Assembly (NCBI GenBank): GCA_951406725.2
Contig: OX597827.1
Coordinates: 30,194,001 to 30,258,000, forward strand
Direction of reading: 5' to 3'
Source of the DNA: Octopus vulgaris
Lineage: Eukaryota
DNA: 64,000 nucleotides
In this document: piece by piece, positions 16,828 through 64,000 of the stretch
How the letters are laid out: every line of letters begins with the position of its first letter
How positions within the stretch are numbered: the first letter of the stretch is position 1
Translations under genes and position numbers: made by a program
The notes under the pieces: model-generated
Told to the model about the DNA's origin: nothing
Databases searched by the model: none
Seen by the model: the letters and a program-made list of their open reading frames with translations, nothing else

Positions 16828-16830
<3 letters not shown>

Positions 16831-18440
16831 GTTTTCTGTGTGTTTTCTGTGTGTTTTTTTTTGTGATTTGTGTGGGTTTCGTGTATATTCTTTTTAAGTT
16901 CCGTGTTTAATTTGTGTGTGTTGTATATGGTTTTTGTGCATGTTTTGTGTAATCTCTGTGGTTCGCGTGTTTTTGGTGTGTAATTTGCGTTTTTTGTGTG
17001 TAGATGTGTGTGTTTTGTTGATGATTTGTCTGTGATTTGTGTGTGTTTTGGGTGTCATTTATGTGTTGTGTTTTGTGTGATGTTTGTATGTGGTTTGTGT
17101 GTATTTTGCGTGTGATTTGAGCGTGTTTTGTGTGTTCTTTGTGTATTTGTTGTGGGGTTTGTATGGTTCGTGTGTTTTTAATTTTTTTGTGTCCTCTTTG
17201 GGATTTGTAGAGGGTTTTTTGTGTTTGTTTTAAGTTTCGTGTGTAGTTTGTGTGTTTTTTGTGTCATTTATGTGTTTCGTGAGTGTTTTTCCACTTGCTG
17301 TTTTGTGTGGTGTGTGGGTTTTTGTGTTTTGTGCCTACTTTGTGCCTATTTTATATGTGCTTTGCGTGTTTTTTGTGTGTGTTTTGTGAGTGGCTTGTGT
17401 TTGTTTTGTGTGTGTTTTCTGTGCGATTTGTGCATGTTTAGTGTGCATTGTGTATTTTTTAATGTTTGCAGTGTTTTGTGAGTGCTACTTGTGATTTTTG
17501 TGGTTCATGTATGGTTTAGGTGTTTTGTAATTTGTATTTCGTTTGCTCATTTTTGAGTGTATTTTGTGTCTTTTGTCTGCTTTGCGTGTGGTTGATGTAT
17601 TTTTGGGTTTTGCGTCTGTTTTCTGTTGTCTGTGTATAGTTTGTGGGTTTTTTGGGTGTCATTTGTGTGTTTTGTTTGTGTTTCGTATGTTTTGTAACTC
17701 TTTCCTGTGTGTTTTGTGTTTTACTATTAAGGTTTGGGTTAGTGTTTGTGTCTGTGTTTAGTGTGTTGTGAGTGTTTTTTGTGTGTTTTGTATTTTATTT
17801 GTTCTTTGTGTTTATTTTATGTGTTTGATTTTTTGTGTGCATTTTGTGTTTTTCGTTCTTTTGTGTGCTTGGTGAGTGGTTTGTGTGTTTTATGAATGTT
17901 TTGTATGTGATTTGCGTGCTTTGTGTGTTATTTTTGGGTTTTGGGTGTGTTTTCTGTTTTTCGTTTTTTGTGCTTTAAGCGGGTTTTGTATATATTTTTT
18001 GTGTGTTTTCTGTGTTTTTGTGTCTGTTTTGTGTGTGATTTTTGTGTTTTGTGTATATTTTTCTCGTCTTTTGCGTGTTTTCTGTTTGGTTGAAGTGTGC
18101 TTTGTGTGTTTTGTGTATAATTTGTGTGTTCTGTGAGGTTTGTGAGTGTTTTGTGTTTTTTGCGTGGGTTTTGTTTGTGCTTTGTGTATTTTGTATGTAT
18201 TGTGAGTGTTTTGTGTATAATTTGTATTTTTTTGTTGATTTTGTGAGAGTTTCGGCGTCTTGTGTGTGTTTTGTTTGTTCTTTGTGTCAATTTGTGTATT
18301 TTTGGGTTTTAGGTTGGTTTTGAGTATGTTTTCTGTGTGATTTCTGCGTTTTGTGCGTGTTTTATGTGTCTATTATGTGTGTTGCTGTTTTTATTTTTCT
18401 GTATTTTTTATTTTGTATTTTTTGTGTTTTGTGTGTCACA
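16828..18440. repeat. Degenerate T/G-rich cryptic repeat (rDNA IGS)
   Basis: Strongly T/G-biased on the plus strand with no exact period; same character as 32859-33225. Confidence 0.8.
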
Positions 18441-18817: not shown

Positions 18818-19584
18818 AAATCGCCGCTTCGTGCCTCGTCGATAACACACGGACACACACACTCGTGGTCTTCGTCGTACTCAGACTTACTCCCCGGCAA
18901 TCAACCGGCCGCATAACTCGGCGCACTCGTGCACTCGACCGAGAACTCTCTCAAGTGAAATCGCCGCTTCGTGCCTCGTCGATAACACACGGACACACAC
19001 ACTCGTGGTCTTCGTCGTACTCAGACTTACTCCCCGGCAATCAACCGGCCGCATAACTCGGCGCACTCGTGCACTCGACCGAGAACTCTCTCAAGTGAAA
19101 TCGCCGCTTCGTGCCTCGTCGATAACACACAGACACACACACTCGTGGTCTTCGTCGTACTCAGACTTACTCCCCGGCAATCAACCGGCCGCATAACTCG
19201 GCGCACTCGTGCACTCGACCGAGAACTCTCTCAAGTGAAATCGCCGCTTCGTGCCTCGTCGATAACACACGGACACACACACTCGTGGTCTTCGTCGTAC
19301 TCAGACTTACTCCCCGGCAATCAACCGGCCGCATAACTCGGCGCACTCGTGCACTCGACCGAGAACTCTCTCAAGTGAAATCGCCGCTTCGTGCCTCGTC
19401 GATAACACACAGACACACACACTCGTGGTCTTCGTCGTACTCAGACTTACTCCCCGGCAATCAACCGGCCGCATAACTCGGCGCACTCGTGCACTCGACC
19501 GAGAACTCTCTCAAGTGAAAAGGCCGCTTCGTGCCTCGTCGATAACACACGGACACACACACTCGTGGTCTTCGCCGTACTCAG
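18818..19584. repeat. 140-bp tandem repeat, ~5.5 nearly identical copies
   Basis: Unit starts at 18821, 18961, 19101, 19241, 19381 and 19521. Confidence 0.95.
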
Positions 19585-19653
19585 CTCTGCTTTCGCTAGA
19601 CAGTAGATAGGGACAGTGGGAATCTCCTTCTCGCCTTCGATCCGTTCACCTTA
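19585..19653 (-). other. Ectopic copy of the 28S R1/R2 target region (downstream half)
   Basis: TTTCGCTAGACAGTAGATAGGGACAGT is identical to 23455-23481, followed by GGAATCTC, GATCCGTTCA and CCTTA. Confidence 0.9.
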
Positions 19654-21456
19654 GTGAGACTCAATAGAGTCGATTCCCTTTATTTTATTGTGGGCGGTCC
19701 CACACTGTCTCAGCCAATTCCCTAAACTTGCGTTAAAAAACGAATTTCTAAAAGAGTAAAAAAAATTCTACCTTAGTAGAGGGGATCTAAAATTAACAGC
19801 AAGGCGGGCGCTTCTTCGATGGGCAGAAGAAGCAAAATGTCAAATCCGGGTTTAAATTTATTTTATTTTCAGTTCCTATCGAGGCACGGCCCCCAAACCT
19901 TGCCACCTCCTCAAAAACAAAATAAAATAAAAGTTTTGAGGGGCATCCTGCACACCAACCTCTCGGTCCTCGAAAAAAAAAAGAAAAAAAATTTTGAGGA
20001 CTTCATCGAGGGGGTTTTATGTGCAGGATGCGATAGGAACTCTCAGGGTCAAATTCAGTATATGGGCCATTGGAATTACCTGCAGTGTAAATGGCTCTAT
20101 ACAACTGCAGGGAACGTTGATAACGGCCCAACGTGGTTGGGCAACACGCTCTTAACCCACAAGCCACCATCTTATACGGCTCCTGGCAACCGTATAGTTT
20201 AAGGATTTGGACTTCGCGGCATTTTCCAAGAGTACGTGGAAGAAAATCAAGAGTACAAGAGTAAGGAATCAAGCCCTGCAGACCGTAAGCCAACATCCTT
20301 CATAGCCAACCGAAATCCGCACACTAAGCCAAGTACCCTGCAACAGTCCGCGAAGGGCTCAATACTGACGGTTTACCCGTCAGTTGATTGGCTCCCGAAG
20401 TGAGGCCAAAAGTGAGTCCACTCATGCAATAAATTTTGTGAGCCACAACAATCTGGCGTCAGGAGACAGCAATCGAGAGCCACCCAGGGACAGCAGCCTT
20501 CACGAGGCGCTAACTTGTGGGCGAGATAAGAGGCAGGATGGAAGCACCCCATCCCCACCTCGCCCTGTCAGCAGCCCAAACCGGACAGCGAACCCAGCCG
20601 TTCTGACCTTAACCGTCCGTGGGCGCCACCCCGTAAAATTCTATATAGAAATGGGGGGCCTTCACACAACACCGAAGCCAGGTAGTGGCCGATCCGGATG
20701 AGCAGGAGGCCGACAAGCGCAGCCACGACCAACCAACAGGGTATCATCCCACTCTGTAAACGAAAATCTTCCACACTGCTTGGTCCCCACCAAATAATTG
20801 GAACCGCTATGGGGAAAAGACACATTTAGTTTGTCCGCGGACGGGTTGGCGCCCGCAAAAGCCAATAATGGCTTGCGTCCCGCCCCCCGCAGACGTAAGC
20901 TCTTAAACCACGACAAGGTAGTGTCCCCGTGGGTGAAGCCTGGCAGTGCATCCATCTCCCGGGTGAAACCCGGCAGATCATAACATACCAGACAAACTTG
21001 ATGGTGCATCCACCCTCTCGCCTCGCTGCCAATGTTCCAATCGGACACCGCAGGTGTGTATCCCCCTATACACCAACCACACCGGTGTTCCTATAGGACA
21101 CCGCAGGTGCCCCCAACCGACTGAACCTTTCTGCCCCCAACGAAACTCGGTGGGGTGGGGACAAATCGTATCAAATCGGCTATTCAATAAAGTTCACCCC
21201 AAGTGGATGAGCAGTAGGAACAACCACCCATTGCAAGGTTCGTGGGTCATAACCATCAAGCCCCACTTAAGAGAACCTTTCTGCCCCCAACGAAACTCGG
21301 TGGGGTGGGGACAAATCGTATCAAATCGGCTATTCAATAAAGTTCACCCCAAGTGGATGAGCAGTAGGAACAACCACCCATTGCAAGGTTCGTGGGTCAT
21401 AACCATCAAGCCCCACTTAAGAGAACCTTTCTGCCCCCAACGAAACTCGGCCCCAC
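19654..21456 (-). mobile_element. Putative non-autonomous R2-related element inserted in a 28S-mimic site
   Basis: Splits CTCTTAAGGT (minus strand). 19670-19705 matches the R2 3' end (23567-23601) at 30 of 36 columns. No RT or endonuclease ORF; many hairpins. Confidence 0.7.
21123..21450. repeat. 150-bp tandem duplication (2.2 copies) at the 5' end of the insert
   Basis: Units start at 21123, 21273 and 21423, and the two complete units include CCCCACTTAAGA. Confidence 0.95.
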
Positions 21457-21590
21457 TTAAGAGTAGTCGAAGTTACTCCCGCCGTTTACCCGCGCTCGAT
21501 ACCGAGAAGTTCAAGCCCGTACCCTCGGCTCTGCTTTCGCTAGACAGTAGATAGGGACACTCCTCGCCTTTGATCCGTTCATGCGGCGCC
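21457..21590 (-). other. Ectopic copies of the 28S target region (upstream half, linker, then a second downstream half)
   Basis: AGTTACTCCCGCCGTTTACCCGCGCT (21471-21496) equals 28115-28140. 21535-21559 equals 23455-23479. Confidence 0.9.
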
Positions 21591-22049
21591 TCACCGCTTC
21601 GACAACACACACTCGTGGTGTTCGTCGATAACGCCGCGTACTACTCAGACTTTGTCCGCCTCGCCACGAGACCGGGGCTCGCGCCCGATGCCGACGAGCG
21701 ACGACTCGTCGGCGGTTCAGGAGATTACATACAATCGGACTGCCACATGCTGACGCAGCCACCCTGTGTACGCGCGCACTAAGCAGGAGGTGCCGTTTCT
21801 TCCACTTCTCACTTAAACGAACCTGCAACGGAGCGCGCGCTGCTAAGCCCATGCGCGCTCGATCCGGCGGCCAAGACGAAGGCGGTTACGGCGACGACTA
21901 CCGCGCGCTAAGTCGTTCGCCGCAGACACACTTCGACGATCGGCGCGATCGTAACGACTCCCAGCCGCCCTTCGATCGCGCCGTAACACTTTTGCCATCT
22001 TTCGCACCTCCACCTCCGCCTTCCGCCTCGAAGGGGCGGATCGTGTCGT

Positions 22050-22628
22050 TTGCGAGAAGAGACTCAATAGATCGCAGTGTGGTAGCTGCTCTACTAAGCA
22101 CGTCACTCCGAACGGCAAGTCGGGTCGTATGCAAGCGATCCCTTTCGTCTCGATCTCTTCGAACTAGTCGGGGCGGGACGACGAGCAGACGACGACGGCG
22201 CGAACGCCGCAGCCGCCGCCGCGTCCCCGAATGGCAATTCCGCCGGCGACGCTGCCGCTCGCCGCGCGAACGCGACGGGCGGACGAGCTAAGGCATGCGC
22301 CTTGAGGTTGAGACGCTTTTGGAAAACAACTCGAGTCCGGCTACGGTTCCGGCTTAGAGGCGTTCAGCCGTTATCGCTCAGAGGCAGCCTGGCACCACCG
22401 CTCTATCGAGCGAGCGCGCAAACCGTTGCTCTGATCCCGCGGTTCCTCTCGTACTGGACGGGATAGCCGTAGCCGAGTTGACGTTGCCGACGCCCGCCTA
22501 AGGTCGGCCGGAGAAACGCCGGCGGCACGGCCAGGACGGACGACGCGCGAGCGCGCCGCCGCCTCGACCGCACGCCGAGTACCCCGACGCGACTCGGGGC
22601 GCCGCGTACGCGCGATGCATCGGTAGGA

Positions 22629-22675
<47 letters not shown>

Positions 22676-22778
22676 GTTAGTGGGTGAACAATCCAACGCT
22701 TTGCGAATTCTGCTTCGCAATGATAGGAAGAGCCGACATCGAAGAATCAAAAAGCGACGTCGCTGCGAACGCTTGGCC

Positions 22779-22821
<43 letters not shown>

Positions 22822-23429
22822 CGGCGGACGCATAGCTCGCCGCTGTAATTCGGAAAGGATCGATGGGCCACGCTTTCGCGGTCCGTATTCGTACTGAAAA
22901 TCGAAATCGAGCGAGCTTTTGCCCTTTTGCTCGACGTGTGGTTTCCGTCCACGCTGAGCTCGCCTTGGGACACCTGCGTTACCATTTGACAGACGTACCG
23001 CCCCAGTCAAACTTCCCGACCGACACTGTTCTCGACTAAGGGTCGCGCATCGGCTGCGCCGACGTCCGCAAAGGCGCTCGACATGCAACGCGCGCTTCGC
23101 ACCAGATAATGAACCACCGCTCGGCGACGGCCCGATCCCTTCTCCATCGAGTGAGCGAGGAAACTACGGAAGTGGCGGTTTTTCATCGTCGCAAACGCGC
23201 GCGACACCCCGACGTCGAACGCGCTTAGCCGACGGCGCCCACGGCGCACCGACGAGACCGATGCCGCGCGAGGCGACGACGGAACCAACAGCACGCCAGC
23301 GCGCCGCCGGTGACGGCAGCGCCCGGCGCGGGGCAACGCGAATGCTACCGCCTATGTTACGCCTACCGTGTGCCCTCACAAAACCGGACTAGAGTAAGCT
23401 CAACAGGGTCTTCTTTCCCCGCCGATCCG

Positions 23430-23464
<35 letters not shown>

Positions 23465-23499
23465 CAGTAGATAGGGACAGTAGGAATCTCGTTGATCCG

Positions 23500-23541
<42 letters not shown>
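22050..23541 (-). rRNA. 28S: 28S rRNA, 3' part (downstream of R2)
   Basis: Conserved blocks such as GTCTAAACCCAGCTCACGTTCCC, GCAATGATAGGAAGAGCCGACATCGAA and CACTAATTAGATGACGAGGCATTTGGCTACC. The 3' end position is approximate. Confidence 0.95.
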
Positions 23542-26500
23542 GGTTCTTGCAGAAATTAATCCGCAATCGTTCCCTGTTGTTTACTGTGGGTGGTCCCACA
23601 CGCACTCTGTCATAGCGACGCGCGCGCTGTCCCTCCGGGATTGTCCCGCTCTGCCATGGCTAGTGATCTTAATCACGGCCTTAGACATCATTTCGGCGGA
23701 TGTCTTTTTCGGTCATGTCCGTTCCCCCGTCCGGAATTGGCACCCCTCGGGCGGCATTGGAGGTGTGGGCCTAGATTCCCGTTTTTGCCGCACCTGGCGC
23801 TGTGTGGTATCAGCGTCAGAGAGTGGCATCAGGGTCCGGTTTTCCACACATAACGCTCTTCGGACAGGCTCGGACCTATATTTCTTGTCAGGTAAACTCC
23901 TGGATCACCTTGGGAGTAGCGTTTATTCTGGTGGGGTCCCCGCAGGAGTATGAGCGCTTCGACTGCGGGGAAGTTACGTTTTTAGACTGGCTCACGTACT
24001 AGAGGGCGGGTCCAGTCGTCCCGCGCCCTCAGCCCTGCGGTGAACGGCGCAGGGACCCAGAAGCTCGATACGCGCCTTGCTTCGGGGGACCCGCGGGGGG
24101 AACTGACGGGGTGACCGACAGAATCGCGTGGTTTAGTTTGTGATAGGCCTCGGGAAATCGAATTCGAGAGAGGCTGATGAAGAGATCAACCTAGTCTGTT
24201 CTTACTGACAATAACCTCTAGTAACGGCGCCCAGGCGTGGGCCGCACCGTCCGATCCCCGCCACTGGATCAACTCCTCAGCATGTTAAGCGTGCAGAGCA
24301 TGGCAGTTCTGCTTAGTAATCGCATGAAACGCTTATCCATGATACGCAGCGCAGCCAGCGCCTCCTCGGCCTCGGCGCACCAAGCGCCGCAGGCTCCTAT
24401 CGGACAACCGAACACGCGTACCGGTAGATCCAGCTCCCTTTGGGGGAGTGGTATCAGCGGCCGGTACTTCCTTTCTTTCTCGCGCGCGGCGTCCCTCAGC
24501 GCCGTATCTTGCTCGTACCTGACGGTCACGTCTATAACGACAACTTCACTAGAATTGCGGAATACTAAATCGGGGATTAACCTAAATCGGGGATACTCGA
24601 TAGACCGACTCCCAGCCGGTCATCCAGCCATACCGTCCGGCCTCCCTAGCCACCAGCCGGCATATTCGATTGTGCCTGGCCAGCCTCTGCGTTTTGAGGC
24701 GTGAGCACTGGCCACTGATGTGGGAGATCGTCTCCGACGCGCTTTTGCACTTCCTACAGGTGCTATCGCCACGGCCTCCCCGAGTGAGGCATTCGCGGGT
24801 GGGAAACGTGTTGGTCCGCATCTTGAGTATCCCCAAGTAGCATTCCTCAGATATCCCGCCCGGTCGCGTCATCCAGCTATTTCCGATCTGGTCCGATTTA
24901 AAGGCGGCGGCGCAGACACCCTGGACCGGTTGCGATTCCCACCTCTTGGCGCCTAATCTCGATCCGGGACGTACAGGTTGCCATCATTTTGGACAGACGG
25001 AAGATCGTATAGGGCGGCCAGCTCCTCGTTCTTAATGGCGAGCCGGGCCGCCTGAGCTTTGTTCGAACGGCATCGTAATCTGAGTTCAGTAAATGCTGAT
25101 TCCTGCGAATCACGTTTTTTGGAATAGCGCGTGCTAACTGACAGAGGCTGAGGCCCCCGACCCTTCTTGCGCTATACAGGAAGCTTTTAGAAGCCGAATC
25201 GGGGAGATGGAGCATCCTTCGCGCCCCAACTCTTATTGCCATATCCAGTTCATCCAGTGCTACTTTCGGTGGTATCGCCTGTGTTAGTCCGTAAAACAGG
25301 CTCGGCAGGTAGTATTGCTGTAGTATCATGAGCTTTTGACGGGGCTTTAAGGGAGCCCGGCATATATCGTCTATGCATCGTGATACGGTCTCTACCGATG
25401 TGTCTCTGTTCTGTGTCGACCAGGGGAGAGATTTTACCCCTAGGTACGGCACGCTTTCGTCCGGTTCGACTCGTGGCAATGGGCACCCATCGAGTTCTGG
25501 CGGCGACGTCACGTTAACTAGGAACGACTTTCCCCAGTTCCGAATGGAGAACCACGCGCATTTGGAGACGTTAATGGAGAGCCCTACCGCGTGGTAGAAC
25601 TCCGAGCAATGATCGAGGAGGCTCTGTAGTCCCCGGCTAGAGCCGGAGACTAGCACTAAGTCGTCCGCATACGCGAGGCCCGCCATGACCGCACCACCGC
25701 CCGCCATGACCGCCCATATTGGCGGGCAGGGCTCCTAGCAGCGGGTCGGTCGCGATGTTGAATAGGAGCGGTGATAGGGCGTCGCCCTGTCGGACACCGC
25801 GCCTAATCTCGATCGGCGTGCTGCTCTCGGTCCCAATCGTGAATGTGGTGGTGGAGCCCTCGTAGAGCTGTCCCACTAGTCTGATCAGGTGGTTATCGTA
25901 GCCGAGCCTTCTCATGCCCGCAAAGATAAGGGATTGCGAGACCGTGTCGAAGGCTTTGGCTAGATCCAGGAAGGCTATTTCTAGCCCCGGGAGTTTAGGT
26001 CGGACGTGCGTTGCCCCCTGGCGTGGTCCAGTAGCCGGCGGAGGAGAAAGTTATTCTCGCCGCATCCGTCAGCCTTAATGAAGCCGCGCTGGGAGGGGTT
26101 GAGGGGCGTTGCCTGGAGCATCCTGGCGGCAAGCACCTTCGTGTATAGGCGGTATACCGCGGGACAGATGGTGAGCGGGCGCCAGTTGGACATGTCATTT
26201 GGGCTTCCTGCCTTCTTTCGAAGGAGGATCGACCTGCCACGCAACAGGATCCTCGGAACACGTCCCGTTAGTAGTAGGCAGTTGAATATGTTGGCGAGGA
26301 CTGCAGGGTCGACTGCCCTGACTTCGCGAGGTGTCAGGCCATCGGGGTCGGCGGCAGAGGCCGGATCAATGCGTCGGCGGGCGATCTTTAGCTCCTCTAC
26401 GGTGAACGGACACAAAATGGAGGTGTTGTCCACCGCGGAGGAGGCCGGATAGGCGCTTAGGTCGACCTCTGGCCCCGGTCGGGAAAGCCTGTCCCGGTAG

Positions 26501-28103
26501 AGCGCTTCGATGTCGCTCATCGGGACGGGGCACTCGCCCCCTAGGTCCTCACCAAGTATCACTGCCATAAGCTTTTTCCTGTTGAGAGCGAATAATCGCT
26601 GGAATCGCGCGTAGCGTTCTACCTTCGCGCGTCGATTTGGTGGTCTTGGTCCAGTGCCAATTCGCTGTTTCGATGGTCCTGGTCCAGTTCCAGGGGTGGT
26701 CCGCCTTTTCCTTTCACGAGCGCTCACCCGGCCTGATGCCATGTGGCCCACCCATTCCTCTACACGATTCTCGAACTCGATCCAGTTCAACTCCGAGCAG
26801 TCCTCGCTGAGTGCCAAGAGGGAATCTGCGAAGGACGAAGCCCAAGTGGAGTGACCTGGTGATGCAGCTTGACTGAACGGCTCCCGCCAGTCCGGGACTG
26901 CGGGCTGTGCCGTGCTCCTCATGGTCGACGTCCGCCCGGAGGTACGTGCGAGCTGAGCACGCTTTTCCCTCTTGCGTGCTATTTCGTTCATCCGACTATC
27001 TATCCTGCGCCTGTTCGCCTGCACAGGGTGCATATGCCTAATGTGCTGTGACAGCCCCGAAGCCGTACGGAAGGCTTGGCTGCACCATTCACATTTGTGG
27101 GGGAGCTGCTGAGATACTAGTGCCGTTGGAACCGCGTTCCCCTTGCACTTTCCTGCGTGGCACCTGACCGAGTGGAGGTGGCCGCTTTCATGGCCGCAGC
27201 GGCTGCATCTGTAAGACAGGCTTCCGGGTATGCCTGTTGAGTACGTGGAGCCCCCATTCGAGAGGGCTCGAGAAGTGTCGAGGGCAAAGTGGACACACTA
27301 TGGAAATCGACGCGCATGGAATCTCCAGGGTGAACGCATCGGCCGACGGTTGGCAGGCCACGCCGCTATCAATAGCCTCCCCCATGGGCGGTCCGTCCTC
27401 ATAATAGCGAGGGAGAACGGACAGGGGAAGGCCGGCGAGAGCGTCGTGGCCGCCGCGAGCTCCGGCGGGAGTTGCTCACCACGGAGAACCAACGTGTGGG
27501 ACGCGCATTCGAGAACAAAGCGGCCCGGTTTGTCCCTAGAGACCGTAAGCGACTTGAAGCCACTTTTACTAGACATGATCGGGGGGTCTACCTGATTACG
27601 CCGAGGAAGGCTAGACCTTGTACCCACCTCAGGGGGAAGTAGCTTTTCGCCACGGCGTGGGCACGTCCCATGCCGCAACTGATATCGAGGCCCTTCCCGG
27701 GACCTCGACACCGCCAGTTTCGCGGGGCCTGACACCCGTATGGCATTAAAGTTTACGTTTTGCATCATGTTTTTCGAGCGTTTCTCCGTGAGCTCGAGCC
27801 GGATTTCCAGGCAGACTGCCAGTGCACCCCAACCCCAAACGCGCGTAGGGGCCGCCCCAAGGAGTGATCACCAGATGCACGCACGGGTTCGCCATACACA
27901 CATAGGAGGGGGGACCGGAGCCCCGCCCTTAATAACCGCCCCAGAGTCAGCGGAGTCTCCAACCGTTTCGGTTCAGTCAGGGAGATCGGGCCGCCTTCGT
28001 TAGTCCAATGCGATGCAACCAATTCGGTATGGTTGAACCTACCGGTGTATCCGACACCGTCCGACGTAGCTCACATCACGGATGTAAGCTCTCTTGCCGC
28101 GAC
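23542..28103 (-). mobile_element. R2: R2 retrotransposon (three N-terminal zinc fingers, R2-A type), end to end but frameshifted
   Basis: Lies between GACTCTCTT and GGTAGCCAAATGCC of 28S. Fingers CPLC..H..H, CSRC..H...C and CEWC..H..H at ~27030-27300. RT motifs WRPL, QRGF, DLAKAFD, GVRQGDALSPLLFN, YADD. CRKC..ETISHISGQC and RHN. Endonuclease PDL..DV.VRYE..KERKY. Stop at 24269. Confidence 0.95.
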
Positions 28104-28142
<39 letters not shown>

Positions 28143-30833: not shown

Positions 30834-32235
30834 TCACCGACGTTTCGAGAGAACGAAGCGCGGCGGGAGCGGCGCGGAAGCTCGGGAAGCAGCCGCCGCC
30901 GATCGGAAAAAAACGAGAAGAAAAGGAATCGGAGGGGCCGAAAACGGGCGCGGGCGCTCACGAGTTCAGCCGCCGTTCGTATACGCGCGCGCCTCCTCCA
31001 ACGCTGGGGCGGAAGAGGCGAAAACAAACGAGTCAACGCGCGAAGAAGCGTTCGCGGAACAAAAACGGTTTACGATCCGACTGCCGCACACCGGTGCCGC
31101 TGCGGACGGGCTCCGGTGCGGGTCGATTGGAAGTGGGGCCGGTTCCGGGCGGAAGAGGAGGAGGCGAAAAAGGCCAGCGACTAAGTCGGCAGACGAGAGG
31201 GGCAGCGGCGATTGGCGGGCCCGCTGCAGCTTTTAGACCCGCCCGGCGCCCTATGCGTCGGTGGTCGCTTCTTCCTCCTAATCCTTTCGAAACGGCTGCG
31301 ATGAACTGCGTCCGGACTGCAGTCAACGAGCGAGTGCCATGACGGTGGTCGCCACGAAAACGACGCGCGCCAAGGGGTGATGCCGGGAGGGGGAAGCTGC
31401 AGAAACGCTACGACGCAGCGAAACCCGGAGTTGAAGCCACGGTTCTGTCCAGGGAAGAAGGGACAGACACGGCACCGCTCTCTTTCGGAGACGCCGTGTC
31501 GCCTGTGGCGGAACGGGAAGCGAGGGCTAGCCCGTCAGCCGCGCCGGCGGCGACACGACACAAGGTCAGCGGCGTAACCTGACCGGGTCCTCGGCTGCGA
31601 AGACGAGGCCGGGGGTCAGAGGAGGAGGCGAGAGAAAATGCGGTAACGGAAGCTCGGGAAGCAGCTGCCGCCGATCGGAAAAAAACGAGAAGAAAAGGAA
31701 TCGGAGGGGCCGAAAACGGGCGCGGGCGCTCACGAGTTCGGCCGCCGTTCGTATACGCGCGCGCCTCCTCCAACGCTGGGGCGGAAGAGGCGAAAACAAA
31801 CGAGACAACGCGCGAAGAAGCGTTCGCGGAGCAAAAACGGTTTGCGATCCGACTGTCGCACACCGGTGCCGCTGCGGACGGGCTCCGGTGCGGGTCGATT
31901 GGAAGTGGGGCCGGTTCCGGGCGGAAGAGGAGGAGGCGAAAAAGGCCAGCGACTAAGACGGCAGACGAGAGGGGCAGCGGCGATTGGCGGGCCCGCTGCG
32001 AGAGGACAAACCTGCGGGCGTTGAAAGGTGGGCGTGAAGAGGCGGGCAGACGCGGGCGTCGAGGGAACGCGTCTGAAAGGCGGGTGGTGTGGCGGCGGCG
32101 GCAGAAACTCGAGGACGCGCCAGCCGTGTATAGTCGACCTTGCACCGGCAATAGGGGAGCTAACCGTTGGCAGAAAGGAGCGTCGACAACACCTAGAGCG
32201 TGACTATCCAGCCGGGGCCGACCCATAAGCCTACA
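30834..32235 (-). other. 5' ETS / promoter region with a ~350-bp direct repeat (30876-31228 / 31647-31999)
   Basis: Lies directly upstream of 18S; the two GC-rich blocks are near-identical. Confidence 0.8.
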
Positions 32236-32858
32236 GGTCTGATTCTTTCGACCTCCGGGTCGGACCACGTCGCTCCATTTACCCGGTGCGTATCGCAACA
32301 CACCCACCGAGACTGACGGCATCGATCGCGCCTACGTCCACGTGTACGTGGGCGACACCGCGAGGTTCTCTTCAGCCTAACTTCAGCCTGGAGCTGAGGG
32401 CGAAGGCGGGCTCGGGCCCGCCGCTATCGCCCGATACCTGCACTGGCCGCAGTTTGTCATCTTTCGGGAACTTACGGGACGGACCAAGTCGCCGTATCGA
32501 ACGCCTGTACCTCCCAACATCGGTCGCGGCTACGTCCACGCGTACGTGGGCGATACCGCGCGCTTAGTTTCGAGCTTTCGATTTCACGCACGGTAGGGCG
32601 GCGGAGACGCGGGCGACCTCGTGCTAGCTGCAGTTTGTCATCTTTCGGGATTTTACGGGACGGACCACGTCGCCGTATCGAGCGCGGGTATCTCGTGAAC
32701 GCCTTCCGGCATCGGTGGCGGCTACGTCCACGCGTACGTGGGCCATACCGCGGGCTTAGGTTCGTTCTATCTATTTCGGGCACTGTCGCGTGGCGGAGCT
32801 GCTGGCGAAGGCAGCCCCTACTTATACTGGCCGCAGTTTGTCATCTTTCGGGAATTTT
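32236..32858. repeat. IGS sub-repeats (~190-bp period, ~3 diverged copies)
   Basis: GCAGTTTGTCATCTTTCGGGA at ~32449, 32630 and 32833. Confidence 0.85.
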
Positions 32859-33225
32859 CATCGAGCTTGTGTGCTTTGTGTTTTGTTTGTTCTTTGTGTC
32901 TATTTTATGTGTTTTGTTGATTTTTGTTGTGTACTGTGTGTTTTGTTTCTTGTTTGTGTTTCGCGTGTATTTTGTGTCTGTTTCTGTTGTGTTTGTACTT
33001 TGGTTTTTTTTAATTAGTGTTTTTTCTTTTTAATTTGTGTGTTTTGTGTGTAATTTGTGTGGTTTTTGTGAGTGGAGTGTGTGTGATTTTTGTATTTTGT
33101 GTGTTTAGTGGATATTTTTCTCATCTTTTTTGTAGACTTTTGTGTTTCGTGTGTTTCCTGTGTGGATGTGTTTTATGTGTAATTTGTGTTTTCTCTTTGA
33201 GTCGTGTGCGTTTTGTGTGTGTTAG
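32859..33225. repeat. Degenerate T/G-rich repeat (IGS)
   Basis: Same composition and strand bias as 16828-18440. Confidence 0.8.
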
Positions 33226-53958: not shown

Positions 53959-57516
<3,558 letters not shown>

Positions 57517-58505: not shown

Positions 58506-61500
58506 CTAGCAGCATAGCCCGGCGTTGCCCGGGTATGTAAGAGCCCCTAGTAGGCAACGACTAATCCCAATGTAGTCCTTTCCCTCCAGGGAACGAAGGT
58601 GCATGTGGACGTTGCAATGTCTTGTCTTCACTGGAATACTTCTGTATATACGATGTTCCTAGCTGTCCGTTTGGGCGAAAACATGAAAACATCATTGCGC
58701 CTCCCAACGCGTGAACAGCCCACGTAGAGTTGACCGTGGGCGAAGCACTGTTCGCCCAAATGTAACCCAGCGACTTGTAGCGTTTGGCCTTGGGATTTAT
58801 TGATGGACATTGCGAAGCAGAGTTTAACAGGAAACTGAGAACGCCTGAAGTGGATTGGTAGGTCAGCGCCCGACGGTTGAAGGTGCATCCGTGGAATGAA
58901 GACGTCCTCTCCCTTCCCACAACCGGTAAGTATTGTGGCCGTTATTAAATGTGGTGCCAAATGTTTCACAACCAAACGTGTGCCGTTGCACTGTTTAGGT
59001 GGAACCAAATTCCTGATGAGCATAATGGGCGCACCGACTTTTAACTTCAGGATGTGTGGTGGCAGGCCTGGCGGTTCAAGTGAATTCAGGAATTCAACAG
59101 GATAATCGGCAAGCTGGGCGGGGTCTGCTGTCCTATCTATAGATTTGTAGACGTGGACATCACAGGAATAGCTTCAAGTAGCTGGATATTGATGGAGTTG
59201 ACGGTTGTATTTTTGGGTGCGAGAATAGCTCTGCCTGCCAGCCATTTTAGGTCGCGTAAATTGGTTTGTAGATCGTGGAAGACAGCGTCCCGGAGGCTAG
59301 CAGGGGTGTCGACAATGGTGCAAAGTGAGTCCAATTGAACGTAGCCATCCACATCAGACAGCATCCTATTTTCACCGAGCGATAAGAGGTCCCTGGAGAA
59401 TGCAGCGGATCCGCTGTCACCAATTAACTGCGCGCGCATGTTAGTTTGGAGGTGCAAGGGCCGCACATGTGCCCAAAGAGCTGACGACTTAAGGCACGCG
59501 CGCACGGCATCGGCATGGGTTCCTTTTGGAATAACAGGTAGAGTCTGCCTGAAGTCTCCTGAAAGAAGTAAAGTTAATCCTCCCATGGGGGCCGTAGAGT
59601 CTCTGATGTCTTGCAGGGACCTGTCCAGTGCCTCAAGGGCGCCTTTGTGTGCCATAGTGCACGCGTCCCATACGATGAGTTTGCATCTGCGCAGAATGTC
59701 GGCCTGTTCTGAGTTCTTGGCGATGTTGCAGATAGGTGACTCGGACTTTGCCAGATCGAGCGGGAGTCTGAAGGCAGAGTGGGCGGTTCTGCCACCCGGA
59801 AGCAACGTGGCCGCGATATCAGAGGAAGCTACAGCCAGGGCAATGTCCGTGTTGCGTCTGACCTCTGCCAGAATTAGTTTAGTGACGAAGGTTTTGCCAG
59901 TGCCGCCGGGTGCATCAAGGAAGAAAATCCCCCCACGTTGCTGTCTGACAGAGTCTACGATGGTGTTGTAGGCTATGCGCTGGTCTGGAAGCAGCCGTAG
60001 TTCATTATCTTGGACGTACTGGTGCAGTTCCTCAATGCAGTAGGAAGTTTCGCGTAACAATTCAGCAGACATAACATTGGCGTGTTCACGTGTGGGTGGT
60101 GGAAGGCCGTACTCTGTTAAAGCAGATCCACCCATATCGATGACAGCGTCTTCGAGTTGAATGAGCGCAAAATTGTAAATGAAGTTGGTGAACGTGATCT
60201 CGGCGGAAGGGCAGTGTTGCTGAGCCGTACGTAAGAAGTCGTGCGACATGTCATCCCTGTATTTCATCCAGAGACTTAGTGGATCACTAAGCTGACATTT
60301 TTGAATAAGGATTGCGAAAAGATGTCGTAGGGCCGAATGCGTTTGCAGTAAAGCACCCTCTGCCATCGTGGCGTCCCACTGGGAGTCATCCTCTAGAAGG
60401 CCAAGTCTCATACATGCTTCCCTGAAGGTGTCGCACAGAACCCCATTGACGGTACGTATATTGCCGAAACCTGTTGGACCAGTGACCTCATGTAGGAGAC
60501 GGAGGTAGAAGCATTCTTGCTGGTTTGGCGGGATGTTGTAAGCTCGACCCAGGCAGGAGTCAAACTTGACGCCTGGGAAGCTTTCGACGTTTTCGCCGGA
60601 TTTCCGTCGAACCCAGGTGTTTTTAGACCACACGAAGTACGATGGGACCTGTGGGTACAAAAGCGTTCGAGCGAAGTCATCACGTTGGCATAATTTGAAG
60701 AAACCAGTCAACGTTGTGTCTTTAGGGCTGGTGGCTATCTGCACAGCACTTTGCTCTGTGAAGTAAATCCGCTGTCCATTTTCCAAGTGTACAGCAAGCT
60801 GCACCACAGCCGGGTGTCTCTGATGGAGCGGGAAGCCGTAAATGCGCCAAAACGCTTCGTTGCTGCTGAGGTACCGGCCAGCCAAGTAGTTGGACACTTC
60901 GTCGCGACTGGTGGTCCTCTGGATGCTGAACATGGCAGCATCGCTGCCTTTGTTGATATATTTGCAGACATATTGTATTGACCTGATGGAGCTGCAGAAC
61001 TCAACGTTGACGTGGGCTTTGAATATCTTCGACAGGAGAGGACAGTAGGGGACAATGTAGCTGTTGTCCACTTGATGTCGCCCAACCGTAATCGTGCGGC
61101 CTCCATTGGCTGGACTCCTTCGTTTGTACAGCGGATACCCATCGCCGCCTGTTTGAGTCTCCAAAGTGAACCGTTTAGGGAATCCCTTTGAGCAGGCTAA
61201 TCCGTTTTTGTAGCATGGTGTGTTGGCGTAATTTGGTCCACAGGGCCCGTGTACCATGGTAGTGCGGACAATTTCGTAGAGTCCGGGGTCCTCATCGGGG
61301 TCAGGAATCTCGGCGGAAATGAATTTGTCAATGTCATTAGTCTCGATTTTATGAGTGAGCCAAATTAAGATGTGAGCATGTGGCAAGCCCCTCTTTTGCC
61401 ACTCGACCGAAAACATGTGGCACCTGACATGCCCGAAAATCTGACCCTTAACTATCAAATCCTTCATTTTGCCCAAATTCAGACGGAAAACAATAGCAAC

Positions 61501-64000
61501 GATGTCGTGTCGATGGGTGTGAGATTGACCCGGGAGGAGTTCGCGAGTGATTTCGTCGCAGCTGGGATTGCACGTGTAGGTGATAAAGAGGTCCGGCCGG
61601 CCGTAAATGCGCACGTAGGTCAAGGCGTCTTGGGTCCTTTCACGCATATATCGCGGTCCTCCCGTGAAGGTGGAGGGTAGAATGCATGGCTTGCCGATGT
61701 TGCGAGGGTCATTTTCTTGTTGCAAACCGTCACGGAGATGAATGTAGGAGTCGGAGCGAAGTTTGGTCTGATTAAGTTTAATGTATAGCAGCCTTTCCGA
61801 TTCCATTTTTGCGGCCATGTCGACGGCGAACTGGTTGAATAGCTGACGACAACGGGGCAATAAGTTGAACTCACCCTCTCTGACCATGAACCGGTATGAG
61901 TAGAACGCCCTGCAGGAAACCGTCTTTGATGCCGCAGTAGTTTGATTGGAGGGCTGCCGTAAAGGAATTCCGAAGTGGTAGCCGTCTTCCCCATAAGGGA
62001 AAAGCAATGGATACTGAAGCGCGTCATAAGATCTGTGAGTCTCGCTGATCCTGTGTAGGTTGTTACCACGGGAGGAGATGATTATGTCACGGCTGTTGTG
62101 TTGCTCTCCGTGTATAACTGCGGCAATTTCGTTGCACGCAGGTGCGTTGAAACGGCGTTCGTGCTCCCCGTAGGGTCGTTTATCAGCATCAATGACAACG
62201 GTGAAGTTTGGAGATGGAGCACTGTCCAAGGCATATCTGAAGCTGCAGACGTAGCTGTTGATATCATGAAGCATGGTTTGGAGACGGAGAAGAATGTCTT
62301 TGCGAGGAACATAGCTTGTACCCGGTATTATTCCAAGGCGTGCATCAACCTGGTGGTTGTAGTCGGCAATGAAGTATATTTGGAGGAAAGAAGACTGCTG
62401 AATCTCGTCTGGCAGAAGTGACCCAATAAGATGGTAGACCTGTCCCTGCACTTTGAAAGTAGGCATCCAGCCTTCTCTGGGAGGAATTTTGGCCCCGAAA
62501 GAGGTCATTTGGAATGAGCAGTTGTACTTTCGAATTATTTCAAGGAATTGTGACGAATCGGGGGTTAAACCCGCCGCGAGATCCTTCAGTGGTTGAGGTG
62601 GTTCCCGTAGGGGTGGCAGGTCCACTTTGCCACCAGAGCAGCACAAACCAGGTGGCTCTCCGGGCCATTTCTTGGCTTTGCAAAACTGGCATACAATTGT
62701 CATTGACCCTATCTTGATGTCGTCACGCAAGGAGAAGTTAATTGTGGCGTCGTAGTTGAATGCTAGTGACAACCAGAAAGCGGGGGCAGGGGTACGTACA
62801 CCACGAATGATATCCCGACGTTTGTTGATACTCTCAAGTCGAGTGCACCGTGCCTCAGCAGATTCAGATGCACGTGCGACAGCGGTAGCAGTGGCATCCC
62901 TTGAAAGCCTTTCAGCTCTCGCCTCAGCACCCTCTGAAGCCCTAGCAGAAGCAGTGTTAATGGCATGTCTGGATGTCCGAATAGTCCGTTGGTGTGGAGT
63001 TTCGGCAGATCGAGCCCTGGCTGTGTTTGCGGCGTTAGCAGCTTGGCGAGCTCTCCTCTGTTGAGGTGTTTCGGCAGCTTTGGCCATGGCTTTGTTTGCG
63101 GCGTCAGCATCTTGGCGAGTTCTCCTCTGCTGTGAGGTTTCGACAGATCGTGTCCTGGCAGTGCTAGTGGCGTTAGCCGCATTCCGAATGGCCCTTTAGT
63201 TCGGGGTTCTCGCGAGCTCTGCGGATGGAAGCACAGTAAGAAGCCCGCATGTTTTGGCTGGACTGTTGCTCTTTCGTCAACCTCGAGCGGAGGGAAGATC
63301 TGTACGCTGCGACCTTTGCAAGTCGGGTAGAACGGTCGCTAGTAGTTTCAGATGCCTGAGCAGCGGCATAACGGGAAGCTGTTTGCGAGAGGCGCAAGGC
63401 GGTTTCCTCGTGGGTCTCGCGTGCCCTTCTAGCCCTAGCAGCCGATGCCTTGGCCGTCCGAGGGCTGAGGAGGGTCCTTCTCTTCTTGGGTGGCATTTTG
63501 GTGGATAGCAATGTGTTTGGCAAAGGTGTAATAAAAAGGAACACGTGGGGTAAGTATTTTGGTGGATAGCAATGTGTTTGGTAAAGGTGTAATAAAAAGG
63601 AGCTCGTGGAGTAAGTATCCGAAAATGTATAAAAATGTACAAAAACGGCCAAAAACCTGGCAGCAATGTGAGTGACAACAACGAAAAAGTCAAAAGTGAT
63701 CAAACTGAACAAACGAAAGGAAAAGTTTTTTGATGCACACGACAAAAGTGGTTTATAATAAACCAAGAGTTTGCAAGTAGCGTCCGAGGACCGTTAGGGT
63801 ACGTCAAAAATTGAAGGTAAAATGTTTGGGGTGGTAGTTATAAAGAAAGTTTAAACCAAAAAAGTATTCGAATAACTTGCGGCTGCAGCAGCTATTAGCA
63901 GAAGTGGCGGTGTTGGGGGTAAAGTCTCGAATGTAATTTCTTCCTGGTAGGAATTGGTTGGATCGAATTATCGATAGCTAAAAAGGTCAAGTTGCGTCCC
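58506..64000 (-). mobile_element. Helitron (autonomous type); 3' end intact, 5' end outside the window
   Basis: 3' hairpin CCCGG-gcaacg-CCGGG, then CTAG followed by T; RepHel ORF upstream. Confidence 0.95.
58628..63496 (-). pseudogene. Helitron Rep/PIF1-helicase (1316-aa open core 59137-63087, frameshifted at both ends)
   Basis: [55 protein letters not shown]. Walker B reads WDA instead of WDE. Confidence 0.93.

Follow-up and report, generated by a model that had tools for sequence, protein, structure and literature searches.

A degenerate rDNA unit with two insertions

The window, a stretch of 64,000 nucleotides from Octopus vulgaris (contig OX597827.1, positions 30,194,001 to 30,258,000), contains, on its minus strand, a single degenerate rDNA unit, with the 18S gene at 30833-28681 and a 28S gene interrupted at 28105-23542 by an R2 element, here referred to as lineage alpha (Table 1). 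The 18S gene in the segment 28245-30833 contains deletions, and no match to 5.8S or to the 5' part of 28S was found between it and the R2 site. The unit is bordered on both sides by a TG-rich simple repeat (16828-18436 and 32867-33093), and the segment 18442-18813 repeats 32232-32857. Two further frames were noted elsewhere on the minus strand: a stop-free Helitron frame of 1352 aa with Helitron_like_N and PIF1 domains (59137-63195), and a frame of 593 aa with RVT_1 and a weak PHD finger match (55021-56802).

A second insertion is located in the spacer beyond the 28S gene. It had been reported in a preliminary description as a 1.8-kb insert in the orientation of R2; it is indeed discrete and has the orientation of the rDNA and R2 (minus strand). 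The size holds for the full span of 19654-21463, but the core is only 1.62 kb and the remainder is a 5' tandem duplication of 150 bp plus 28 bp, which is private to the window copy and absent from the other copies of the family. No RT or endonuclease ORF is present, as reported: none of the six frames runs for more than 164 aa without a stop, a tblastn search of nine copies with an intact R2 ORF gave a single weak match (E 0.72), and 13 beta-type ORF segments gave no match to the nine copies at E<=0.01. The insert is without protein-coding capacity, but part of its interior is of coding origin, as about 60 decayed N-terminal codons of R2 remain. A plus-strand frame of 195 aa matched Methyltranf_PUA (Pfam) at 19.9 bits, which is under the cut-off, and was dismissed as a chance match. 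The stems noticed in the interior exceed chance expectation, with z scores of -5.07, -2.68 and -3.38 for three consecutive parts of the insert, each below all shuffles.

Table 1. Features of the rDNA unit and of the spacer insert, in window coordinates
Feature	Position	Strand	Remarks
R2 lineage alpha copy in the 28S gene	23542..28105	-	Broken ORF; ribozyme 5'-truncated
3' part of 28S rDNA	22038..23541	-	Ends ~575 bp upstream of the spacer target
Spacer target, upstream half	21464..21495	-	Copy of 28S about -40..-10
Whole insert, very likely an R2 SIDE copy	19654..21463	-	Based on genome copies and junctions; 3' end possibly 19650-19654 (target microhomology)
5' tandem duplication (150 bp + 28 bp + outer head)	21274..21463	-	Each head begins with the P1 heptamer
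Predicted P1 5' strand, inner copy	21267..21273	-	Repeated at 21417-21423 and 21457-21463
Long J1/2 region of the 5' UTR (340 nt)	20927..21266	-	Contains hairpin 21081-21103
Predicted HDV-like ribozyme core	20818..20926	-	P2 20921-20926/20818-20823; P3-L3 20907-20919; P1 3' strand 20900-20906; P4 20833-20894; predicted catalytic C 20829
Rest of the 5' UTR-derived interior	20250..20817	-	Patchy alignment to beta-type R2 5' UTRs
Decayed R2 ORF start (~60 codons) with conserved hairpins	20060..20250	-	Private 23-bp deletion in the window copy
3' UTR homologous to beta-type R2 3' UTR	19704..20045	-	Stems 19871-19881/20031-20041 and 19943-19954/20020-20031
3' terminal signal (predicted pseudoknot-hinge-stem)	19654..19703	-	Invariant hairpin 19690-19703; A-rich linker; GGGAA 19674-19678; terminal hairpin 19658-19671
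Spacer target, downstream half	19585..19653	-	TAAGG, then 28S copy from about +37; +1..+36 absent
140-bp spacer subrepeats, 5.5 copies	18818..19584	.	Directly after the target in every unit examined

The letters TAA flank the insert, but the duplication described from them is ambiguous and is not callable as a target-site duplication since either side may be the element's own sequence. On the 5' side, CTCTTAAG is part of the ribozyme strand of the element and recurs within the tandem duplication, and other family copies terminate in letters similar to the TAAG end; the 3' TAAG may for these reasons represent element, target or microhomology. Signs of a MITE or DNA transposon were not found: none of 25 inverted pairs in the insert links the two ends, and the junctions vary with no fixed-length TSD.

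A predicted ribozyme at the 5' end

The preliminary description had compared a hairpin at 21081-21103 with one in the 5' UTR of the window's R2 at 28041-28059. The hairpin exists, but the two are not equivalent in position: the former precedes the ribozyme core while the latter sits within P4. The real 5' homology is between 20818-20919 and about 27990-28105, and the HDV-like ribozyme fold at 20818-20926 had gone unreported. The core pattern occurs 34 times in the genome, compared to 0 for the control. In an alignment of 39 cores, in which P2 of the alpha rows is shifted by one base, 89.9% of the cells in P2, P3, P1.1 and the base of P4 are paired versus 26-42% with slid partners, and double changes were observed at 9 of the 16 pairs. 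Two more cores of the same ribozyme type (L087:8518-8669 and L089:7896-8047) were neither alpha nor beta, the second R2 group in the genome, according to blastn.

The heptamer that follows P3 complements the one with which the element opens, at a distance of 140-500 nt (a loop of 340 nt in the window copy), and the P1 5' strand thereby formed is identical to 28S -9..-3. The main family has CUCUUAA/UUAAGAG as its P1 pairs, two copies have CUCUUAC/GUAAGAG, and the beta-type groups have CUCUCUU/AAGAGAG and CUCUUUC/GAAAGAG, giving four distinct matched heptamer pairs and one change within the SIDE family. Heads were available for 22 of 40 cores, the other 18 being without one. The heptamer was fully paired in 12 of these 22, compared with a mean of 3.7 in shuffles, none of 10,000 of which reached 12, a significance that is overstated because the copies are related. 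The remaining 10 heads were imperfect, and two copies of one variant retain a mismatch. Heads located in duplications or outside 28S begin at the first C of the heptamer, from which we predict that the ribozyme cleaves 5' of the C at 28S -9. The predicted first pair of P1 is C-G rather than the usual G-U, and P1.1 consists of one G-C pair only.

The 3' terminal signal

A 36-mer near the 3' end of the insert matches the window's R2 in 30 of 36 columns, exactly as reported, and had been proposed as a possible minimal R2 recognition signal. The motif was found 34 times genome-wide, versus 0 for a reversed control. Thirty-seven ends, drawn from every lineage, were compared. Their GUGGG/CCCAC hairpin hardly varies, with covariation at its closing pair; pairing of two loop C residues with a downstream GG is possible in 94.6% of the cells with zero double changes, and a hairpin of variable sequence comes next in 35 ends against 20.2 expected. 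A-clade R2 proteins bind a terminal pseudoknot-hinge-stem of ~65 nt, according to the accessible parts of two reports (PMC12180492, PMC12222951), and by analogy the shared 36-mer fits the pseudoknot-hinge portion of that signal. The 36-mer spans the predicted pseudoknot and hinge while the stem falls outside, and since this hairpin after the 36-mer is also conserved, the 36-mer alone is probably less than the whole minimal signal.

The likeness to the A-clade signal, as far as the accessible text describes it, comprises a contiguous terminal hairpin with possible loop pairing, a short purine hinge and, within the final 50-60 nt, a stem whose sequence varies. The A-clade signal was shown by cryo-EM and mutation in birds and a turtle, whereas the predicted 2-bp pseudoknot in octopus is supported by conservation, and the likeness is one of arrangement.

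The 3' UTRs of alpha and several beta-type elements contain an antisense copy of 28S ~+6..+40 directly before the terminal hairpin (window 23600-23645, L051-L068, L095 and L097). It was detected in 19 of 26 non-SIDE ends at p<=0.01 and could pair with co-transcribed 28S. The corresponding pairing of the SIDE 3' UTR with downstream 28S was rejected, with 0 of 11 SIDE ends significant.

Copies of the insert in the genome

A search of the genome (2.8 Gb) gave 58 matches in the 40 of 48 candidates that were scored. In addition to fragments, 12 near-full copies were identified on 9 contigs, with identities of 78-98%. Their 3' junctions are located exactly at 28S +1 in five copies and at a 28S-like site in the spacer in three; the other four consist of one in a head-to-tail array in the spacer site, one present there in truncated and inverted form, one ~175 bp downstream within 28S and one outside rDNA. 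The window copy itself is in the spacer site and not in the 28S R2 site. Among the 5' junctions of the 12 copies some are precise, while others show a deletion, a duplication or fusion to another element; at least 10 differ and two are identical. At C18, two full-length beta R2 elements and two SIDE copies are arranged head to tail inside one spacer site. A further copy, of 310 bp, is 5'-truncated with an intact 3' end. Four copies that are 97-98% alike share a common 3' junction and could have spread passively with the rDNA.

With family copies at the exact 28S R2 site, the previous suggestion of a structured, non-autonomous R2-related element (SIDE) is borne out. Copies at unrelated sites with TIR/TSD features and descent from a decayed element of another class were both looked for, and neither was found. 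We consider it very likely that the insert is an R2 SIDE, based on its R2-colinear ends, HDV-like ribozyme fold and R2-type 3' signal.

The insert is not an assembly artefact. Parts of it were found in 15 of 24 listed runs (7 studies, four organism labels), and in four runs it was covered in 30, 30, 27 and 29 of 30 bins. The 3' junction of the window copy is bridged by contigs in runs X1 and X4, with 0 and 1 differences, respectively (X1 is possibly the source sample).

A truncated SIDE lacking both ends (L107:4019-5396; G000:C1:148628019-148629396) is inverted at a spacer site a few bases beyond the nick position and is flanked on either side by a short repeat. The sole near-full copy outside rDNA (L005; G000:C15:60713569-60715312) has flanks that may resemble a mariner-type transposase.

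A probable 28S-like target in the spacer

The spacer site matches 28S -40..-1 at 37 of 40 positions (35 of 40 in an array at C20), after which the similarity resumes at ~+37. Empty spacer sites gave 11 exact matches to one variant, 7 of which are in the tandem array at C20, and 0 to a control; empty joints were present in 3 of 4 runs. In the homogeneous C20 array, C replaces A at -4. An upstream target motif at -22..-34 is given in the accessible text of PMC12222951, and the spacer site retains it. The joints of SIDE subfamilies, beta R2 and a single deleted beta element with the spacer site all lie at most a few bases from the nick-equivalent position. Small deletions, which may be scars of repair, mark the R2 nick position in five empty spacer sites (L072, L073, L076, L078 and L082). 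R2 would cut the spacer site, and the site may be transcribed. An origin of the 140-bp spacer repeat from the R2 target was also considered and rejected, the similarity being no better than that of shuffles (103 of 500 as high).

An array at L039-L045 (G000:C29:25640001-25710000) is composed of beta R2 fragments that are truncated; ~200 bp of upstream 28S stands before each of them, and downstream 28S is missing.

Probable origin from a second R2 group

Relative to lineage alpha, the SIDE matches only in the ribozyme core and the 3' motif; it stems not from the window's R2 but, via internal deletion, from a different R2 group. The beta elements are 5.3 kb in size, and a profile of nine SIDE copies matched them in the 5' UTR (E 4e-32), the ORF start (1e-17) and the 3' UTR (4e-25). 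The order is colinear, from the 5' UTR with the ribozyme through the ORF start to the 3' UTR, with ~3.5 kb of the ORF missing; ~570 nt of the SIDE interior align patchily to any R2. In 6 of 9 copies the decayed N-terminal peptide outscored all 200 shuffles, in a test that is slightly liberal because the best of four peptides was used; the window copy does not pass because of its 23-bp deletion. Double changes were observed at 9 of 27 predicted pairs in the ORF-start hairpins.

A tree of the region bearing the ORF start was rooted at its midpoint; homology is weak in the region on which its alpha branch is based. All 10 SIDE rows group together in it, separate from the 13 beta-type rows, and their nearest neighbour is a truncated element at C16. 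On these alignments, the SIDE would have arisen long ago by internal deletion in a lineage related to beta, and its direct parent is missing from the assembly. Three zinc fingers are present in both alpha and beta, and the related proteins match solved R2 proteins with a best E of 4e-92. Stop-free frames longer than 1200 aa were found in two alpha copies (1276 and 1311 aa) and in no beta copy among at least 73 scored matches to a piece of the beta ORF. The rDNA arrays are probably under-assembled.

An internally deleted beta R2 lies within a spacer site at C9 (L092:8132-10000 and L103:1-500; G000:C9:113360132-113362000), and its breakpoint nearly coincides with that of the SIDE. It was considered as a second SIDE family, but the deletion junction is present once in the assembly and the element is a single deleted copy. 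The two cases of deletion hint, but only hint, that the ORF start bears a needed RNA element. A 5' protein-binding RNA is known in R2Bm (accessible text of PMC6895275), and by analogy the ORF-start structure of the SIDE may be its equivalent.

Proposed mobilisation in trans and alternative explanations

We regard it as likely that the insert represents an ORF-less, internally deleted R2 family, colinear with beta, that is moved by R2 protein in trans. The SIDE would be co-transcribed with the rDNA unit by Pol I, and the ribozyme would cut 5' of the C at 28S -9, so that the RNA would begin with a short 28S-like head able to anneal to the upstream target. An A-clade R2 protein would bind the 3' pseudoknot-hinge-stem and prime reverse transcription at the nick, and the same protein would also nick the spacer site, where 28S -40..-1 is almost fully preserved. 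Template jumps would give rise to the 5' duplications and to the head-to-tail arrays with beta R2. The chances are slightly better than even that the helper is an intact beta-type copy in unassembled rDNA, and slightly short of even that it is the alpha lineage.

The family could instead be a dead, internally deleted R2 that made one or a few insertions and later spread solely by rDNA recombination and orphon formation. The four copies with one 3' junction, the window unit, itself a degenerate orphon, and the absence of an intact parent-type ORF among the at least 73 scored matches in the assembly are in line with this, and there is a precedent in R2Br-deg of Bacillus rossius (accessible text of PMC4370867), which like the octopus family is a non-coding R2 family alongside a functional lineage. 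R2Br-deg is, however, full length, has lost its ribozyme activity and is thought to spread via unequal recombination. The diversity of 5' junctions among the 12 copies, the three kinds of target, the array with beta R2, the 310-bp copy with an intact 3' end and the compensatory P1 change within the family all speak against a dead element, which we consider quite improbable. It is less improbable, yet still unlikely, that the family is a SIDE for which the spacer is no real target, the window copy having arrived by recombination or conversion between 28S-like stretches. A copy at C20 that is joined to 28S on its 5' side and to the spacer on its 3' side does resemble the product of recombination or of a large deletion, the spacer 3' junctions are offset by a few bases and differ from each other, and the spacer site is without 28S +1..+36, whereas TPRT by R2Tg requires 3' homology (accessible text of PMC12222951). 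Recombination would have to account for the arrival of different elements within a few bases of the nick equivalent, and for the nick-position deletions in the five empty sites.

It is scarcely credible that the insert is a structured non-coding RNA or SINE of foreign origin which acquired nothing from R2 but the 36-mer. When compared to the window's R2, just the 36-mer and the ribozyme core match, and some of the interior is without a clear R2 match; the homology to beta-type R2 is nevertheless colinear over three separate regions, including the decayed ORF start. A tRNA-type Pol III head, as in tRNA-derived SINEs, was not detected (0 genes in ARAGORN, no Rfam match), and an Rfam scan of the insert gave six matches, all far under the gathering scores and none above chance, with the ribozyme models silent.

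A more tentative thought, which we hold to be rather doubtful, is that the rDNA unit has a standing second R2 target just beyond the 28S end that offers R2 and its parasite a low-cost niche (or serves the host as a decoy): elements in the spacer would spare the 28S gene, yet their ribozyme would release them from read-through transcripts. In this view the SIDE would have survived the loss of its parent lineage and would today depend on a distant R2 lineage (~60% protein identity) for its movement, via the shared 50-nt pseudoknot-hinge-stem, and it would be a long-cargo template of natural origin for A-clade R2 protein.

R2 proteins are under development for RNA-templated gene insertion, and their template requirements are a practical open question. 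An old natural family without an ORF reveals what selection has kept, namely the ribozyme, the structured ORF start and the 3' signal, and a probable natural second target without downstream 28S bears on how much of the target A-clade proteins need.

Comparison with known systems

No R2 SIDE outside Drosophila and no standing spacer target was found in our literature search, beyond the scope of which lay most subscription papers, Repbase and Dfam. Within the literature searched, the size of the SIDE, its host group and clade, the retained ORF-start structure and the spacer target are new, and SIDEs are extended past Drosophila. The accessible text of PMC13188248, PMC5035012, PMC13580325, PMC10946416, PMC10257491 and PMC4370867 contained no closer case, and that of PMC10257491 describes R2 insertions beyond 28S as well in one butterfly.

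One R2 SIDE of 529 bp was identified in 39 Drosophila species (accessible text of PMC3414825). Like the octopus SIDE, it is a non-coding R2 derivative with a 5' HDV-like ribozyme, an R2-like 3' UTR, a place in the 28S R2 site, 5' junctions that vary and an old divergence from the autonomous element. The octopus SIDE differs in its size of 1.62 kb, in being without a poly(A) tail, in its origin from a three-zinc-finger (A-clade-type) R2, and in the retention of a decayed ORF start. It also differs in the predicted cleavage within 28S-like sequence, in the use of a spacer site and in its tandem arrangement with full-length R2. Self-cleavage was shown for the Drosophila SIDE, whereas the octopus ribozyme is known from its predicted fold.

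As for autonomous elements, the length and the N-terminal 330 residues of R2-1_OVu (Hassan et al. 2026, PMC13188248, Table S2) agree with the intact alpha ORF of 1276 aa, as far as the table shows. R2-1_OVu and R2-1_OSi are autonomous, unlike the SIDE, whose ribozyme core and 3' motif also occur in alpha. As far as their entries are shown, the six cephalopod rows in the 12 of 16 supplementary files of that paper that were searched contained neither a beta-type start nor a non-autonomous element.

R2 ribozymes are reported to cleave 9-36 nt upstream of the site of insertion and to have long J1/2 loops and 5' duplications (accessible text of PMC3774820), and the octopus ribozymes resemble the 28S-cleaving ones among them in their 28S-derived P1 bases, long J1/2, predicted upstream cleavage and 5' duplications. 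The P1.1 of the CPEB3 ribozyme has one G-C and one U-U pair (accessible text of PMC4836649), which is similar to octopus except that the octopus G-C pair is reversed, with the G in L3. In contrast to the ribozymes described in the accessible parts of both papers, the first pair of P1 is predicted to be C-G, offering a ribozyme with an unusual first pair, and the P1 register is -9 or -11 in different lineages of one genome.
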